From a virus (Duplodnaviria; Heunggongvirae; Uroviricota; Caudoviricetes), in the IMG/VR virus record IMGVR_UViG_2526164663_000038: a stretch of DNA of 13,163 bases; one strand, written 5' to 3'. Of the stretch, positions 1,963 through 10,035 are shown piece by piece; position 1 is the first letter of the stretch; every line of letters starts with the position of its first letter. The notes under the pieces are model-generated. The model did no database searches and was not told the DNA's origin. It saw only the letters and a list, made by a program, of their open reading frames with translations. The translations under genes and the position numbers were made by a program.

Positions 1963-2504
1963 TTAAAAATCAGCCTGACTCGGGATCAGTTTTTGCCAGA
2001 TAACTGAAACGTATTTTGCCTGGTAACGGGCGTCATCAAGTGCATTATGGCGCTCACCTTCGAATGGAATAGCCGTTCTGGCATCGAAGTCTATGGCTTT
2101 CCCCAGCTCAACGATTGTGCGTACATCGCGATCGTTGTAGTAACGCCACGGGCAGGGGATCCCCTGCCGTTCGTATGAACGGCGCAAAATCGTGTTGTCG
2201 AAGTTGGCTCCATTTCCCCAGACCTGAACAAAAAATTCACCGGAGTTTTCGTCGATAAATTCCCGCAATTGTAACAGTGCATCATCTAACGGGATTTCAT
2301 CGGTCATAATGGCAGATTGCGCTTCGCGTGATTGCTTAAGCCACCATTTAATGGTGTCCCGATCAATGACTCCGCCAGCAGTTTCCAGATCGATAGTCTT
2401 ACTAAATTCCGGTCCCATATCTCCGGTTTGCGGATCGAAAAATATTGCACCTATTGAGATGATCGGGGCATCAGGATTTTTCCCATGGTTTCAAGGTCGA
2501 TCAT
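1963..2504 (-). pseudogene. DEDDh (DnaQ-like) 3'-5' exonuclease domain, split by a -1 frame junction
   Basis: Exo I motif MIDLETMGK (ATG 2504) is in the frame of the upstream 366-aa ORF; the remainder (PDAPIISIGAIFFD..., Exo II FDNTIL, Exo III HNALDDARY) is the ORF 1963..2418 in the -1 frame; junction at GGGAAAA, plus 2478-2484. Confidence 0.7.
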
Positions 2505-3598
2505 TAGATGGTCACACGTCCTGCTGGTGGATGTGATTTCTTGATGACCGTTCACCTTAATTGGGTGATCTGCCGTCTCGCCAGTTTCATTATCGCTATC
2601 GTGATGCTGATTGCCGCCAGTGTTCTCCTTGTGTGGATGTTCAGCGCCTTCCATTTCCTCCGGATCATCTTCCTGAACTTCAACCTGATACTCTTCATCG
2701 AATGTTTCCTGGTATGTAGCGTCGCCCATCACCGCGCCACAATCAGGGCAGTTGCCGCCGCCGGTCTGACCGCAGGCGGTGCAGACTTTTTCCACTTCCT
2801 GTTGCACTACTGGTTCAGGTAGTTTCGTTTCTGGCTCGTTTTGTTGCGTATTTGGGCTGTTTTGTTCCGCTTTCTGGTCGTTCTGTTCCGTTTCTTGCTG
2901 GTTCTGGTTCACAGAATCGCGGGTTTCAATCCCCTTCACCCATTTCGGATCATTCGGGTCGCTAATCCCTGCAACAAATTCACCACGTGATGCGGCGAGC
3001 AACTGATTGGCGTCAGGCTGGCTGATATTGGCTGCCTGCATAATTTTCTTTACTTCGTCAGCGGTAACTTTTACCGGTTCTGGTTGTTCAGAATTTTGTG
3101 CGGTATTTGCATTTTGCGGTAAACCTGTGTATGTGCCATTTTTTCGGGCGAAATATTCTTCTTTCGTGATTTCAGTAGCCCCTGCAGCCAGTGCCTTATC
3201 CAGACCAGAAAGTTTGTTTGCGCGACCGTATTTTTCGCTATCCTTGTCGGTGAAGAGGAAGTAGAACGGCCCTTCACGCTCTACAGATGGTTCGACTTCC
3301 ACTTTGCATTCGGTTTTTTCGTTGTCCGGAATTGCCGTTTCCACTGCATCAGTTTCTGGTACTGGCGACGAGAGAGTATCAGTTGCGCTCTGATTTCTTC
3401 CTTCATCTTCAAACACGCCCTTTGTAGTCAGGTATTCAGTAATGTATTTGTTCAGTGCCACAGGGTCTTTGTGAATGTCGATCGGACGTTCACGGACAAG
3501 GCCAAAAATAGTCTGGCGGTCGTAGCGAAGGGCATCAGGCTGTTTGCGCATTGATGCCGAGATACGCTTCCAGTCTTCGCGGTCGTTGTCGATAACTT
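2451..3598 (-). pseudogene. Central segment of the large early-left gene: acidic, Gln/Glu/Asn-rich low complexity with CxxC-x7-CxxC zinc ribbon
   Basis: This frame is open from the slip site at 3599-3605 to 2451 and reads straight into MIDLETMG; motif CTACGQTGGGNCPDC; protein-like composition. Confidence 0.6.
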
Positions 3599-4142
3599 CT
3601 TTTTTGCCCAGCGATGGATGCTGCCGTCAATGTTTCCGGCATCCACATCACCAGGCCAGAGAGCGTAGGCCAGTTCGTCATCCAGTGTTTTCCATGTCTG
3701 CTTGTATTCGCGATGAGTGGCAGCAATGACCGGGCTGATTTTTCCTGTTGAATTTTCAGTGTTCTGTTGATTGGCTCTGGCGCGGGCGAGATCAACAACA
3801 GACGTGTATTTTCCGGTTTCCTTGCGTTCACCTTCGCGACGTTTTTTCCAGATGCGCATCTCTGCCTGAATTTCGGGCCATTTGGCACCAGGCTTACATT
3901 TATGCTTAACCCACCCGATGGCATGCAGCTTAAGCTCCGGATACATGGCGTTAACTTCTGGCATTTTCATCAACGCTTCAACGATATGTCCGTCGAATGT
4001 TGCCATGTCTTCCTGCAACAATTCCTGCGCGCTAATCACCATATCAACGGTGATGTTTTCACATGTGTCGAACTTAACCATGACAGCGTTCTGTACTTCA
4101 GGGGCCAGCTTGTCAAAAGTGACGTTCATCGGATCTGATTCA
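3599..4142 (-). pseudogene. Middle segment of the large early-left gene, from the IS junction to the slip site (possibly ydfE-like)
   Basis: Continues the frame of the 5414..5703 fragment once the IS and one TSD copy are removed (..PVET|ESDPMNVTFDKL..); the track ORF 3452..4168 begins with a GTG inside the IS end and runs out of frame after 3599. Confidence 0.6.
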
Positions 4143-5410
4143 TGAGGTAGCCTGAGTTTAACGGACACTCCTTCCTGAAATAGAATGGCATCAGAAGGAG
4201 CTAATAATGAGCAGAAAAACCCAACGTTACTCTAAAGAGTTCAAAGCCGAAGCTGTCAGAACGGTTCTTGAAAATCAACTTTCGATCAGTGAAGGCGCTT
4301 CCCGATTATCTCTTCCTGAAGGCACTTTAGGACAATGGGTTACCGCCGCCAGAAAAGGGCTCGGTACTCCTGGTTCCCGCACGGTGGCTGAACTGGAATC
4401 TGAAATTCTGCAACTGCGTAAGGCGTTAAATGAAGCTCGCCTTGAGCGAGTCGGAGATATTAAAAAAAGCAACAGCGTATTTTGCACAGGAGTCGCTGAA
4501 AAATACGCGTTAATCGAACAATGGCGACAACAATTTCCCATTGAAGCGATGTGTCAGGTATTTGGTGTATCCAGGAGCGGTTATTACAACTGGGTACAGC
4601 ATGAACCCTCAGACAGAAAACAAAGTGATGAGCGGCTAAAACTGGAGATTAAGGTGGCACATATCCGCACTCGCGAAACATATGGAACCCGGCGGCTCCA
4701 GACGGAGCTGGCAGAGAATGGCATCATCGTTGGTCGTGACCGACTGGCACGTCTTCGTAAGGAGCTAAGGCTACGCTGTAAGCAGAAACGCAAGTTCAGA
4801 GCGACTACGAACTCGAACCACAATCTGCCAGTTGCGCCAAATCTGCTGAACCAGACGTTCGCTCCTACAGCACCAAATCAGGTCTGGGTGGCGGACCTGA
4901 CGTATGTTGCCACACAGGAGGGATGGTTGTACCTCGCTGGCATCAAAGATGTTTATACGTGCGAAATTGTCGGCTACGCCATGGGAGAGCGCATGACAAA
5001 AGAGCTGACAGGTAAAGCTCTGTTTATGGCGCTCAGGAGCCAGCGCCCACCTGCCGGGCTAATCCACCACTCTGATCGAGGTTCACAGTACTGCGCATAC
5101 GATTACCGGGTCATACAGGAGCAGTTTGGTCTGAAAACATCAATGTCGCGTAAAGGTAACTGTTACGACAACGCTCCGATGGAAAGCTTCTGGGGAACGC
5201 TGAAAAATGAGAGCCTGAGCCACTATCGTTTTAATAACCGGGATGAAGCCATCTCAGTAATACGGGAATACATTGAGATTTTCTACAATCGTCAGCGTCG
5301 TCACTCTCGTCTGGGGAATATCTCCCCGGCAGCCTTCAGGGAAAAATATCATCAGATGGCTGCTTAAAAAAAGAACAAATGGTAGTGTCCGCTATTGCCA
5401 GTACACCTCA
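4143..5410 (+). mobile_element. IS3-family insertion sequence (IS600-like), 1268 bp
   Basis: Imperfect terminal inverted repeats TGAGGT...GGACAC (4143-4170) and its complement (5381-5410); flanking 3-bp direct repeat TCA at 4140-4142 and 5411-5413; DDE transposase inside. Confidence 0.85.
4207..5367 (+). CDS. IS3-family transposase, OrfA and OrfB fused in one frame (386 aa)
   Basis: N-terminal HTH and leucine zipper (LESEILQLRKALNEARLE); DDE catalytic region (VWVADLTYV, HHSDRGSQY, ESFWGTLKNE); N-terminus MSRKTQRYSKEFKAEAV matches my recollection of IS600 OrfA; SD GGAG upstream. Confidence 0.85.
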   Translation: MSRKTQRYSKEFKAEAVRTVLENQLSISEGASRLSLPEGTLGQWVTAARKGLGTPGSRTVAELESEILQLRKALNEARLERVGDIKKSNSVFCTGVAEKYALIEQWRQQFPIEAMCQVFGVSRSGYYNWVQHEPSDRKQSDERLKLEIKVAHIRTRETYGTRRLQTELAENGIIVGRDRLARLRKELRLRCKQKRKFRATTNSNHNLPVAPNLLNQTFAPTAPNQVWVADLTYVATQEGWLYLAGIKDVYTCEIVGYAMGERMTKELTGKALFMALRSQRPPAGLIHHSDRGSQYCAYDYRVIQEQFGLKTSMSRKGNCYDNAPMESFWGTLKNESLSHYRFNNRDEAISVIREYIEIFYNRQRRHSRLGNISPAAFREKYHQMAA

Positions 5411-7084: not shown

Positions 7085-7729
7085 TTATAAGTTGAACTGT
7101 ACACCTTTTGCTACGGCAACAATTTTACACTCTGGTGTAAGTAAGGATGACTGATAGCGTGGATTGAGAGGGCTTAAATACACAAGCTTCCCATCAATAA
7201 CTAATTTCTTTATAGTCATAGATGGTTCATTTTTAAGCGGATCCGGAACTATTACAGCGACGATGCTGCCATTTTTATAACTTTCTCCTGGCCTTAGGAT
7301 CACAGTAGCACCAACTGGGATACTCGGTGATCCTGATGGGTTATGCATTGTGTCATCAGGCATTGAAACGGCAAAATCACCTTCCTCGACATCAAAGAAT
7401 GTGGTGATCCTATCGACATTTCCCATTGTTTTCTCTCCTTTTAAGATTAGGAAAGAAATCGCCTCACCCCACGAAAGGTAGGGGATCTTGGTGCCTGAGG
7501 TACTTTGTACAAAAGATAATTCAGGAGACGATACTCCATATAGGAGATAGGACTCAGTAGTTCCTAATGCCTGGGCTAACTTACTTAGAGCTTTGCTACC
7601 TGGTTCGTTTAGATCTTTCTCCCAGTACCCTATAGTAACCCCAGTCACGCCTGAAAGCTTACCCAGTTCTACTTGGGTCAGCCCCTTATCTTTTCTAAGT
7701 CTCTTAAGCCTGATGCCAAGGCTTTCCAT
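7085..7729 (-). CDS. cI-type prophage repressor: N-terminal HTH_XRE plus C-terminal LexA-like S24 peptidase domain
   Basis: HTH LTQVELGKLSGVTGVTIGYWE; S24 signature Ser in FAVSMPD and Lys in TIKKLV; ATG at 7729 has AGGAGA 5 nt upstream (track ORF starts at TTG 7744). Confidence 0.85.
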   Translation of the reverse strand: MESLGIRLKRLRKDKGLTQVELGKLSGVTGVTIGYWEKDLNEPGSKALSKLAQALGTTESYLLYGVSSPELSFVQSTSGTKIPYLSWGEAISFLILKGEKTMGNVDRITTFFDVEEGDFAVSMPDDTMHNPSGSPSIPVGATVILRPGESYKNGSIVAVIVPDPLKNEPSMTIKKLVIDGKLVYLSPLNPRYQSSLLTPECKIVAVAKGVQFNL

Positions 7730-7744
7730 CATTTTCTCCTGCAA

Positions 7745-7825
7745 ATTGAATATAAATTATTTTAGATTGCATTGACCTAAAAAAATTATCTTGTAATCTA
7801 AAAATACTTAGATTTAGGAGGTAAA
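7745..7825. promoter_or_regulatory. Divergent immunity promoter/operator region (OR; PR rightward, PRM leftward)
   Basis: AT-rich 81-bp intergenic region between divergent repressor and cro; TTGACC (7772-7777) as candidate PR -35; inverted repeat AATCTA-N8-TAGATT (7795-7814) and extra TAGATT (7764-7769), same half-site as OL. Confidence 0.6.
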
Positions 7826-8053
7826 ATGCGAGTTGATGAACTTGTCCAGTTTTTTGGTTCTGTTCAGAGGGTTGCCGATTTTTATGGGATAACCCGCGAA
7901 GCTATTTACATGTGGCGTAAGCGTCCTGGTGAAATAGTTCCGAAGGGGAGGGCTGCGGAAGCTGCTGCATACTCCAAGGGGAAATTATCTTTGAACCCAG
8001 AACTTTACAAAAAGAAGGATACCACTCAGGGCGAAGGAAAGGGGGATTCATGA
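7826..8053 (+). CDS. Cro-like repressor, DicC-like (75 aa)
   Basis: Strong SD TAGGAGG; HTH-like FFGSVQRVADFYGITREAIYMW; divergent from repressor; overall pattern resembles recollection of DicC. Confidence 0.8.
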   Translation: MRVDELVQFFGSVQRVADFYGITREAIYMWRKRPGEIVPKGRAAEAAAYSKGKLSLNPELYKKKDTTQGEGKGDS

Positions 8054-8475
8054 AAATCAAACATGAGCACATCCGCATGGCGATCAATGCCTGGGCCTAT
8101 CCGGACGGTGAGAAAGTTCCTGCAGCTGAAATAGCCCGGACTTATTTCGAGCTGGGGATGACGTTCCCGGAACTGTACGACGACAGCCATCCGGAAGCCC
8201 TGGCTCGTAATACCCAGAAAATTTTCCGTTGGCTGGATAAAGACACCCCTGATGCTGTTGAAAAAATTCAGGCTCTGTTACCGGCGATCGAAAAGGCAAT
8301 GCCGCCTCTGCTGGTGGCCCGTATGCGCAGTCACAGCTCTGAATATTACCGTGAGATCGTCGAACGGAGGGATCGGCTGGTGAAAGATGTGGATGATTTT
8401 GTCGCAGCGGCGATCGCCTGGGGCACCCTGACTAACAGTGGTGGTCAGCCTGGTAATGCTGTTGTCGTGCATTGA
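8050..8475 (+). CDS. YdaT/CII-like regulatory protein (141 aa)
   Basis: ATGA overlap with cro stop; N-terminus MKIKHEHI recalled as typical of YdaT-family proteins encoded after cro-like genes in Rac-type prophages. Confidence 0.5.
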   Translation: MKIKHEHIRMAINAWAYPDGEKVPAAEIARTYFELGMTFPELYDDSHPEALARNTQKIFRWLDKDTPDAVEKIQALLPAIEKAMPPLLVARMRSHSSEYYREIVERRDRLVKDVDDFVAAAIAWGTLTNSGGQPGNAVVVH

Positions 8476-8543
8476 CCAACAATATTCATGCCGGATTTAT
8501 TCCGGATGTTCGAGGGTAAAGTTCGGTATCAGATGAGGTGAGT

Positions 8544-9581
8544 ATGGCTAATGCCTGGCTCAGATTGTGGCATGACATGCCAAATGATCCCAAATGGCGA
8601 ACCATTGCCAGGGTCTCAGGACAGCCAATCGCAACAGTGATGGCGGTGTATATCCACCTTCTGGTGAGTGCGTCACGAAATGTCACGACATGTCACGGCG
8701 TGTCACTACGTGGTCACATTGATGTCACGACGGAAGATTTAGCAAGTGCGCTTGATGTGACGGAAGACGTGATTGATTCAATTTTGCATGCAATGCAGGG
8801 GCGAGTTCTGGATGGTGATCTTATTTCCGGATGGGAAAAACGCCAGGTGATGAAGGAGGATAACGGTAATGTTTCGCAAACCGCAAAATCCCCGGCAGAG
8901 CGCAAGAGAGCGCAGCGGGAGCGGGAAAGACTGCGGAAGCAGAACACTGATTGTCACGATGAGTCACGACGCGTCACGCATATGTCACGACAAATCACGA
9001 CAGATACAGATACAGATAAAGAATTAAACCCCACACATAACGCGCGCATGCGCGAGAGTGCTACGACCGGTGAGTTGAATGACGCGTCGTTGCAGACAGC
9101 CGAACCTGAATACCTGGACGGCCTGAGCGAACCGATCGGGAAATTTCCGATGACTGGAGTCTGGCAACCGTCGCCGGATTTTCGACAGCGGGCAGCAGTG
9201 TGGGGTATGGCTCTGCCTGAGCCTGAGTTTACACCTGCTGAGCTTGCCGCATTCCGGGATTACTGGATGGCGGAGGGGAAGGTTTTCACGCAGGTTCAGT
9301 GGGAGCAGAAATTTGCCCGCCACGTGCAGCACGTCAGGGCACAGGTAAAACCAGTCAGCAAGGGGGTAAGCCATGCAGCACCAGGTGGCACCGCATCACG
9401 GGCAGTTCAGGAAATCCGGGCTGCACGCGAACAGTGGGAACGTGAAAACGGATTTATCAGCAACGGAAACGGCCTGGAAGCTGTGGGAGCTTATGGGGGA
9501 GGTGTATTCGAACCGCTGGACTCAGAAGAACGGGGCTGCGCCGTCGAAACTCTGGATTGCTCAGATTGGCGCGATGACTGA
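8544..9581 (+). CDS. Replication initiator, lambda O-like (origin inside the gene)
   Basis: ATG 8544 with GAGG upstream (track starts at GTG 8538); two arrays of phased direct repeats inside the coding sequence; immediately followed by a P-like gene. Confidence 0.6.
   Translation: MANAWLRLWHDMPNDPKWRTIARVSGQPIATVMAVYIHLLVSASRNVTTCHGVSLRGHIDVTTEDLASALDVTEDVIDSILHAMQGRVLDGDLISGWEKRQVMKEDNGNVSQTAKSPAERKRAQRERERLRKQNTDCHDESRRVTHMSRQITTDTDTDKELNPTHNARMRESATTGELNDASLQTAEPEYLDGLSEPIGKFPMTGVWQPSPDFRQRAAVWGMALPEPEFTPAELAAFRDYWMAEGKVFTQVQWEQKFARHVQHVRAQVKPVSKGVSHAAPGGTASRAVQEIRAAREQWERENGFISNGNGLEAVGAYGGGVFEPLDSEERGCAVETLDCSDWRDD
8672..8729. repeat. Iteron array 1: six direct repeats of GTCACG at 10-11 bp phasing
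   Basis: GTCACG-like hexamers start at 8672, 8682, 8692, 8702, 8713, 8724. Confidence 0.7.
8953..9030. repeat. Iteron array 2 (five GTCACG repeats at 10-11 bp phasing) followed by a GATACA x3 AT-rich tract
   Basis: Hexamers start at 8953, 8963, 8973, 8984, 8994; then cagatacagatacagataaagaattaaa. Confidence 0.7.
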
Positions 9582-10035
9582 ACAGCAAATCCGGCAGATC
9601 TGCCGTCGGTGCATGGACCGCTGCCGGGCGGGTGAAACGTGGCCTCCGGATCTGGCTGAGTTTGTGGCGTTGATTTCGGAGAGCGGGGCAAATCCATTTG
9701 GCCTGACGGTGGATGCCGTGATGGAGGAATACCGTCGCTGGAGGAATGAATCCTGGCGGTACGACGGGAGTGATAAATACCCGTGGCCACAGCCGGTGCT
9801 GTACCACATTTGCCTCGAGATGCGTTCAAAGGGGATTGAGCGCCAGATGACCGAAGGGGAGTTAAAACGGCTTGTGGAAAGGCAGCTGACGAAATGGGCA
9901 AAGCATGTTGGTAATGGCCTCAGTGTTCCGCCAGTCCGGCGACAACTGGCAGCACCCAAACGCCCGCCAGGGCCAACGCCAATTGAATTGCTGAAACAGG
10001 AATATGAGCGCCGGAAGGCGGCCGGTTTTGTCTGA
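9493..10035 (+). CDS. Replication protein P-like helicase loader
   Basis: MTEQQ...[15 protein letters not shown]...KYPW...[10 protein letters not shown]...[14 protein letters not shown] parallels lambda P MEQV...PFLPSPGQFVAWCRE...SYPW...AHYWLVTNLY...LTDAELRRKAADEL (recollection). Start uncertain: in-frame candidates at 9373, 9493, 9574; overlaps the 3' end of the O-like gene. Confidence 0.65.

Follow-up and report, generated by a model that had tools for sequence, protein, structure and literature searches.

Replication origins that combine iterons with a DNA-unwinding element inside the initiator gene itself are a known design. In phage SPP1, G38P binds oriL, a 356-base-pair (bp) part of gene 38, and this segment is enough to support theta replication in vitro (PMC5737612); theta replication starts there unidirectionally (PMC5737612, PMC6316719), and forks have been proposed to stall at oriR, a second gp38-binding site about 13 kb away (PMC6316719). 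ORF13 of TP901-1 and Rep2009 of Tuc2009 bind direct repeats within their own genes, which serve as the origin (PMC8965321). In the plasmid pSK41, the Rep boxes occupy the center of rep, and the protein segment encoded by the origin is a linker (PMC5703833). In lambda-type phages, iterons and an AT-rich tract lie in the middle of O, and extra iterons lengthen the protein, by 13 amino acids (aa) in Stx phages (PMC7466680). Here we describe two phased arrays of the core GTCACG, together with an A-rich tract that follows the second of them, inside a putative initiator gene of a Caudoviricetes record (IMG/VR IMGVR_UViG_2526164663_000038). The stretch analyzed, referred to below as the window, is 13,163 nucleotides (nt) long, and all coordinates are positions in it (Table 1). 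It matches a lambdoid E. coli prophage, and positions 8400-9700 are 100% identical to a prophage that adjoins potC in strain 11368 of E. coli O26:H11. We propose, with a probability of about 0.7 to 0.8, that this region is the replication origin of the prophage, with cognate iterons, and that it lies within the gene for its own initiator.

The two arrays are highly regular. Array 1 has exact GTCACG cores starting at 8672, 8682, 8692, and 8724 and single-mismatch copies at 8702 (GTCACT) and 8713 (GTCACA), giving core-to-core steps of 10, 10, 10, 11, and 11 bp. Array 2 lies 229 bp downstream, with the identical core and orientation; its exact cores start at 8953, 8963, 8973, and 8984 and its fifth copy, ATCACG, at 8994, so that the steps are 10, 10, 11, and 10 bp. 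A pattern search placed every copy on the + strand. The initial annotation, which described two phased, same-strand arrays of five or six copies each, is therefore upheld, with the detail that each array holds four exact copies and one or two with a single mismatch. Tandem Repeats Finder likewise reported a period of 10 for both arrays, as well as 3.8 copies of ACAGAT at 9000-9022. GTCACG occurs 12 times in the window against 5.2 expected, and eight of these occurrences fall inside the arrays. Chains of at least four copies of a 5-mer spaced 9-12 bp apart were absent from all 500 dinucleotide shuffles of the window, whereas the same test on the real window recovered chains of six copies (array 1) and four to five copies (array 2). 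The arrays are thus same-orientation repeats at helical periodicity beyond what chance produces, as iterons are. Since a period of 10-11 bp shifts the frame between copies, successive GTCAC copies are translated differently (SR, VT, CH), and the arrays are repeats at the level of DNA, not of peptide. A peptide repeat would have a period divisible by 3, and we rejected that reading. The coding peptides reported across the arrays, VTTCHGVSL and CHDESRRVTHMSRQITT, are correct by translation.

We then compared the locus with its relatives, using the N-terminal 167 aa of the initiator as a tblastn query. Identities were 87% for E. coli phages Evi and Tritos, 68% for Aeromonas phage pAEv1818, and 61% for Pseudomonas D3-like phages, and fell to 44% for uncultured phages and 35% for Ralstonia phage Firinga. 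In Evi, phi1 (a Pseudomonas phage), and pAEv1818, at 61-87% aa identity, both GTCAC(G) arrays recur at the same offsets within the gene, with GATAAAGATACAGA-type tracts behind them; the C-domains and neighboring genes of these phages differ. At both array positions Firinga has GCAACG repeats and MW202785 has CGAACGC, and MW202613 retains the second array alone. For a wider survey, IMG/VR was scanned twice, with loci anchored on the motifs DPKW and W..RQPKRE, and a phased array was defined as at least three copies of the same 5-mer 9-12 bp apart. The same 5-mer was phased in both zones at 55 of 84 loci, with a phased array in the array-2 zone at 77 and in the array-1 zone at 58. Among 4200 codon shuffles, the corresponding counts were 0, 51, and 28. 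After de-duplication at 90% identity, a phased array occupies the array-2 position in 65 of 72 lineages (90%), and 45 (63%) have both arrays with the same 5-mer. The impression that two separate arrays are unusual therefore stands against lambda, SPP1, and TP901-1 but not within this initiator family, where the double arrangement is common.

Beyond mere presence, the arrays covary with one another and with the protein that we presume to read them. The cores fall by lineage into the classes GTCACG, GAACGC, TAACGC, GCAACG, and GTGACG, all of which fit GNNACG(C), and arrays 1 and 2 switch core together with lineage. The nearest neighbor of an N-domain has the same iteron class in 46 of 60 cases, array-coded residues being excluded from the comparison. 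Within a set of 80 close relatives (the window included, 36 distinct), 1 of 30 core positions is variable, whereas the remaining N-terminal coding region varies at 79 of its 320; when third codon positions alone are counted, 1 of 10 is variable in the cores and 61 of 106 outside them. Array-2 cores read GTCACG in 130 of 132 instances in these relatives, and the spacers between them occur in nine variants. These patterns indicate that selection acts on the GTCACG cores. Copy number, meanwhile, is flexible. Array 2 has three to six copies in the close relatives, and the window's fifth copy, ATCACG, is GTCACG in most of them; array 1 has six copies in the window versus four in Evi, phi1, and pAEv1818, with larger expansions at two surveyed loci (L135 and L165). 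As a check on looping, we looked at helical phasing between the arrays: over 56 loci their distance clusters near multiples of 10 bp (Rayleigh p ~5e-5 for a period of 10.0 bp), but the clustering does not persist when each distance is counted once (18 of 28 near phase).

Array 2 is joined to a tract that is distinctive in its own right. As the initial annotation had noted in describing a GATACA triple repeat, the sequence past array 2 reads GATACA GATACA GATAAA, and it lies within the least stable duplex of the initiator gene, the 40-mer at 8989-9028. The GC content reaches its minimum, 32-35%, at 8980-9039, spanning the tract, and 40-mers starting at 8981-9001 are among the ~2-5% least stable of all those in the window. 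The same bias is seen across the family: in the 36 nt past array 2 at 78 loci, the composition is 64% AT, 74% purine, and 51% A, compared with a gene-wide background of 44%, 57%, and 27%, respectively (p ~1e-38), whereas the segment past array 1 is 48% AT. The tract is recognizably GATAMA-like in every iteron class, and the number of units varies from three to seven among close relatives, as in a length-variable hexanucleotide microsatellite. Some environmental phages (L123, L116, L120, and others) have more than 12 GATAMA units and correspondingly long (TD)n, (SD)n, or (KD)n linker runs. Its low duplex stability and its family-wide presence make the tract a candidate DNA-unwinding element.

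What kind of protein does this gene encode? NCBI labels its relatives "phage replisome organizer," and the protein matches PHROG 1408 and 3729, both "replication initiation protein." Its N-terminal 100 residues are predicted with high confidence to form a winged helix of the DnaD-NTD-like fold, and this domain matches PHROG 10469 "DnaD-like helicase loader" (E 4.4e-8) and PHROG 4880 "replisome organizer" (E 6e-5). The Pfam family Phage_rep_org_N (PF09681) falls below threshold (15.6 bits, cutoff 23.3; E 0.016), with positions 1-116 of the 121-position profile spanned. An hhalign comparison of the N-domain alignment with the single sequences of TP901-1 ORF13 and SPP1 G38P gave no significant match, and a PDB sequence search with the N-domain profile returned nothing relevant. 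Because the PHROG and NCBI names agree, the Pfam match is below threshold, and the comparison with ORF13 and G38P is negative, we regard membership in the replisome-organizer family as probable but distant. At the other end of the protein, Foldseek matched the modeled C-domain to 4ou6 and 6aeq, structures of DnaT residues 84-153 (E 3e-5, 58% identity, template-modeling score of ~0.9 normalized to the target). The initiator reaches 93 bits with the NCBIfam DnaT equivalog, whose cutoff is 201, and the match is confined to aa 192-269, so the protein is not DnaT itself, and we rejected full-length DnaT identity; the single-stranded DNA (ssDNA)-binding domain alone is held in common. The gene had been called O-like, which is true of its position only: Pfam finds no Phage_rep_O domain (PF04492) in the initiator at E ≤ 0.01, nor in the N-domain at E ≤ 1, and yields the DnaT domain alone. 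Homology to lambda O was rejected on these grounds.

Both arrays are placed where the protein can tolerate them. The residues coded by array 1 are the only low-confidence segment of the N-domain in the predicted model (predicted local distance difference test scores of 62-67, and below 50 at aa 48-53), where they form a loop or hairpin joining helices H1 and H2 of the winged helix. Array 2 and the GATACA tract code aa 137-160 of 345, the start of a linker predicted to be disordered. Compared with Evi, phi1, and pAEv1818, the window's loop is longer by seven residues, equivalent to two extra repeats, and L165, L135, and L140 have 13-20 additional loop residues. As the loop accepts such large changes in length, we conclude that both arrays occupy permissive coding segments. 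The iteron classes share a conserved putative recognition helix, AMQGRVLDG, in which no specificity determinants were found; differences between classes in the N-domain fall mainly on residues coded by array 1.

Based on these observations, we read array 2 and the adjoining A-rich tract as the core origin, in the layout of the SPP1 oriL, TP901-1, and pSK41 origins. Array 1 is probably an auxiliary initiator-binding site, raising the local concentration of initiator or bridging to array 2, although no single role for it reaches even odds in our estimate. The shared core, the shared orientation, and the covariation with array 2 point to array 1 as a second site for the same protein. We rate it auxiliary because it has no unwinding element and is missing in about one-third of lineages, which suggests that it is helpful but dispensable. 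This division of labor agrees with the earlier suggestion of an origin in one array and a different role for the other, given that array 2 is near-universal and accompanied by the A-rich tract. We consider the explanation as a whole, core origin plus auxiliary site, likely, at the lower end of the range given above for the origin itself. In mechanistic terms, the DnaD-like winged-helix N-domains would bind the GTCACG cores, which recur at every helical turn and so present themselves on the same side of the DNA, an arrangement from which bound monomers could oligomerize along the DNA. Assembly of the initiator on array 2 would destabilize and open the adjoining (GATAMA)n tract, after which the DnaT-like C-domain may hold the single strand, recruit the P-like loader with host DnaB, or both. 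Array 1 would contribute by cooperative loading or by looping to array 2. The position of the arrays in a surface loop and an interdomain linker would allow the DNA sites to evolve and change copy number with the fold unharmed.

Table 1. Positions of the origin region, its gene, and neighboring genes in the window (ORF, open reading frame)
Feature	Position	Strand	Description
CI-like repressor	7085-7744	-	
Cro	7826-8053		
YdaT/CII-like protein	8050-8475		
Initiator gene, 345 aa	8544-9581	+	ORF and translation; RefSeq "DnaT-like ssDNA-binding domain-containing protein"
N-terminal winged-helix domain, aa 1-101	8544-8846	+	Presumed iteron-binding domain
Array 1	8672-8729	+	Six GTCAC(G) cores, step 10-11 bp; codes aa 43-62
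Inverted GTCAC copy (GTGACG on + strand)	8757-8762	-	33 bp past last array-1 copy
Array 2	8953-8999	+	Five (G/A)TCACG cores, step 10-11 bp; interdomain-linker coding sequence, aa 137-152
A-rich, purine-rich tract (ACAGAT)3, AAAGAATTAAA	9000-9030	+	Candidate DNA-unwinding element; (GATAMA)n microsatellite coding (TD)n or (KD)n
Conserved joint AACCCCACACATAACGCGCGCATGCGCGAGAGTG	9026-9060	.	Includes 12-bp GC palindrome CGCGCATGCGCG (9043-9054); left edge of C-terminal module
DnaT-type three-helix ssDNA-binding domain, aa 201-267	9144-9344	+	Pfam PF17948, 63.6 bits against a cutoff of 25
Lambda-P-like helicase loader	9373-10035	+	Pfam Phage_lambda_P, E 4e-16; PHROG 109 "P-like helicase loader"

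The way in which this gene recombines provides further insight into which parts belong together. Megablast matches to other phages begin at 9004-9018, directly past the A-rich tract. Stx2 phage Stx2_14040/PPompW and phage pPE4 have the same C-terminal half and P gene attached to unrelated N-domains, the junction being the conserved sequence AACCCCACACATAACGCGCGCRTGCGCG, and these N-domains have mid-gene repeats of their own, for example six copies of ACCCAAA. Accordingly, Eru7 (Stx2_14040) has only the C-terminal half in common with the window's initiator. Because the boundary directly follows the tract, the swapped unit consists of the N-domain, iterons, and A-rich tract on one side and the palindrome, C-domain, and P on the other. 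This is the exchange unit to be expected if the N-domain and the repeats are cognate partners, and modules are exchanged in the same way between the staphylococcal plasmids pSK41 and pPR9 (PMC5703833). The conserved joint at the boundary sits behind different N-domains and repeats in loci L173 and L174, and on the - strand its palindrome scores as a hairpin followed by a T run. By analogy with the palindrome to the right of ori-lambda, the joint may be a functional right-hand element of the origin; alternatively, it may be a simple recombination joint.

Comparison with characterized origins shows which features of the locus are shared. SPP1 is like the window in having its origin within the linker-coding part of the initiator gene (about 350-450 nt in), in its short direct repeats, and in an A-rich tract on the coding strand; its initiator is also annotated as DnaD-like, and the helicase-loader gene comes next. 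In gene 38, one cluster of boxes (GAAACGACA and related) lies at about +355 to +415 nt and is followed by an A-rich tract that starts from GATAAAC, and we found no further phased repeat in that gene. SPP1 thus differs from the window in its single intragenic cluster, and it differs as well in its C-domain (DnaT-like in the window's protein), in its hosts (Firmicutes versus Proteobacteria), and in the lack of homology by hhalign. We also observed that the SPP1 oriL boxes GAAACGACA (L172, 530-640) resemble the consensus of the window's family, TGTCACGACA, and that the SPP1 unwinding element opens with GATAAAC and repeats GATAAC. The likeness of box and tract could reflect a common ancestral origin design or could be coincidence. 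TP901-1 likewise has its repeat cluster in a mid-gene linker, but this is a single cluster of A-rich repeats with a 15-bp period, and its N-domain coding part has no array. Direct repeats in the initiator's own gene, in the linker-coding part, with an A/T-rich tract adjoining them, belong to the replisome-organizer type of SPP1 G38P and TP901-1 ORF13, and array 2 with its tract shows all of these features.

Lambda itself has four O-binding iterons of ~19 bp each with dyad symmetry, and a palindrome to the right of the AT tract. The suggested resemblance to ori-lambda holds in part. Lambda-type phages (lambda, 933W, P27) share with the window an origin in mid-gene with iterons and an AT-rich tract, a P-like loader downstream, the lengthening of the protein by extra iterons (7 aa in the window), a GC-rich palindrome to the right of the tract, and the division into a specificity module (N-domain and origin) and a partner-interaction module (C-domain). 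They differ in having one cluster of four to six ~19-bp dyad iterons, compared with two clusters of 6-7-bp direct cores, and in their Phage_rep_O domain, which is missing from the window's initiator. The pSK41 origin matches the layout of repeats plus A-rich tract seen in array 2, but it belongs to a RepA_N plasmid whose copy number is controlled by antisense RNA and whose four boxes form a single set, and no sequence similarity is shown. Two clusters of a single initiator-binding repeat, one at the origin and the other distal and used for control or looping, are known from P1 (incC/incA), F, and R6K. These plasmids resemble the window in having two such sets; there, the sets control copy number and are found on either side of the rep gene or several kilobases from each other, whereas in the window both lie inside the coding sequence of a phage initiator. 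An array within the region coding for the DNA-binding domain is absent from the SPP1, TP901-1, lambda-type, and pSK41 systems.

We also weighed other roles for array 1. The main rival is negative control, in which array 1 would be an autoregulatory roadblock on the initiator and the P-like loader, or would titrate or handcuff initiator away from array 2, leaving array 2 alone as the origin. Control by two iteron sets is established in plasmids, where the second sets of P1 (incA) and F (incC) titrate or handcuff the initiator. Several properties of array 1 are compatible with such a role: it has no A-rich tract (48% AT past it versus 64% past array 2), it is dispensable in about 35% of lineages, and its copies are expanded, to six in the window from the four of Evi, phi1, and pAEv1818 and further still in L135 and L165. 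However, no sigma-70-like promoter was found within 7700-9700, and none overlaps either array, on which account we rejected an internal promoter or operator at the arrays. Copy-number control has no obvious use at the origin of a lytic-cycle phage, and the same orientation and roughly in-phase spacing equally fit cooperation. We therefore consider negative control unlikely, though it deserves the most attention among the rivals.

A different relation between the arrays would be a single obligatory bipartite origin, in which a bridged loop of ~230 bp is needed to melt the (GATAMA)n tract and the loop peptide coded by array 1 (aa 43-62) helps to set iteron specificity. The contribution of this loop to specificity is speculative, and we judge the bipartite reading as a whole quite improbable. 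Array 1 might instead be a barrier to the replication fork or helicase that stops the leftward fork, making replication unidirectional or triggering the switch from theta to sigma. The geometry would suit such a barrier, as the two like-oriented arrays come first from the left and the A-rich tract only after array 2, and SPP1 offers a precedent in the unidirectional start at oriL and in the proposed stalling of forks by gp38 at oriR (PMC5737612, PMC6316719). The argument is one of analogy, however; oriR lies ~13 kb from oriL, not 230 bp, and array 2 by itself could serve the same purpose. This proposal is weaker than negative control, and we hold it to be highly improbable. Finally, binding of the repeats by another protein (a host factor, or a YdaT/CII-like or Cro-like regulator), or their neutrality as slippage-prone repeats, would accord with the microsatellite-like changes in copy number but is very hard to reconcile with cores kept at synonymous sites while spacers drift, with both arrays changing core together by lineage, with the 0 of 4200 codon shuffles, and with the N-domain being the sole constant companion of the arrays as neighbors and C-domains vary.

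That last point bears on the preferred reading directly. Across E. coli, Pseudomonas, Aeromonas, Ralstonia, and metagenomic phages, the N-domain is the only gene segment always found with the arrays, which speaks against another binder, and we infer that the initiator's N-domain binds the GTCACG cores. A partition-like role, which the initial annotation had offered for one of the arrays, finds no support: there is no ParB-type gene nearby, and in the complete genome of phage Evi the only GTCAC clusters are the two arrays within the initiator gene. A third, distant iteron cluster, of the kind that an SPP1 oriR-like or partition site would provide, was found neither in the 40-kb Evi genome nor in the window nor in 19 kb of the O26 prophage. 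A single inverted core does lie past array 1 (Table 1). It is kept in the GTCACG class (L001 to L003, at locus 1693), and Firinga has inverted CGTTGC copies in the same relative place, but it may be a mere reflection of conserved D-V-T codons.

The neighborhood is that of a lambdoid early region, the module ending with the initiator, the P-like loader, and then a DUF1627 protein. Where the P-like gene starts is uncertain. A long ORF beginning at 9373 shares 209 nt with the 3' end of the initiator gene, and RefSeq places the start at 9574; the Pfam P match sets in upstream of that RefSeq position, at nt 9535, which corresponds to aa 55 of the long ORF. Farther upstream, a 386-aa ORF at 4207-5367 (+) combines HTH_Tnp_1 and rve of an IS3-family transposase in a single frame. 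The ORFs around it, at 1963-2418, 2451-3551, and 3452-4168 (-), appear to be fragments of a prophage exonuclease gene that is intact, at 2472 nt, in O26:H11 11368. As the transposase ORF lies among these fragments, the window seems to come from a strain with an exonuclease gene disrupted by an insertion sequence. Within ORF 2451-3551 (-), a 21-bp tandem repeat (GTTCCGTTTCTGGCTCGTTCT, four copies, 75% matches) at 2822-2906 is probably a peptide repeat, its period being a multiple of 3.

The array-bearing N-terminal module is widespread. It occurs at 1207 places in 644 of 5426 complete E. coli genomes, with up to four per genome, and its carriers include O157:H7 and O26 strains; relatives are found in Pseudomonas, Aeromonas, Ralstonia, and many environmental phages. 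One homologue of the N-terminal module (H60, NZ_CP062204.1 1951166-1951632; 88% nt identity) is annotated as "pyocin large subunit," which is probably a mis-annotation. A literature search on iterons with replisome organizer, DnaT, and prophage yielded no description of this family's origin, an absence that such a search does not prove, and no mapped origin for any member of the initiator family was found in the literature. Papers on the "Eru" replication types of Stx phages discuss neither origins nor this initiator.

What appears to be new here is a further conserved array, placed in the part of the gene that codes for the N-domain, together with the series of iteron classes and the (GATAMA)n tract. 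Because the basic design of an origin within its initiator gene was already known, the advance is incremental rather than conceptual, unless the role of array 1 proves unusual. If the bipartite reading were true, one stretch of DNA would serve as a binding site and also code for the protein segment that recognizes it, the two evolving as a unit. The comparative pattern offers a concrete, testable origin for the whole initiator family, and a clean example of DNA sites set in permissive coding segments. The iteron classes constitute a natural specificity-switch series for how a DnaD-like winged helix reads DNA. Because the module is present up to four times per genome, co-resident prophages may share iteron specificity. 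Prophages with the same iterons in one cell could then cross-activate on induction, and one initiator might fire several origins. Such cross-activation would matter for how prophages are induced and genes amplified in pathogenic E. coli.

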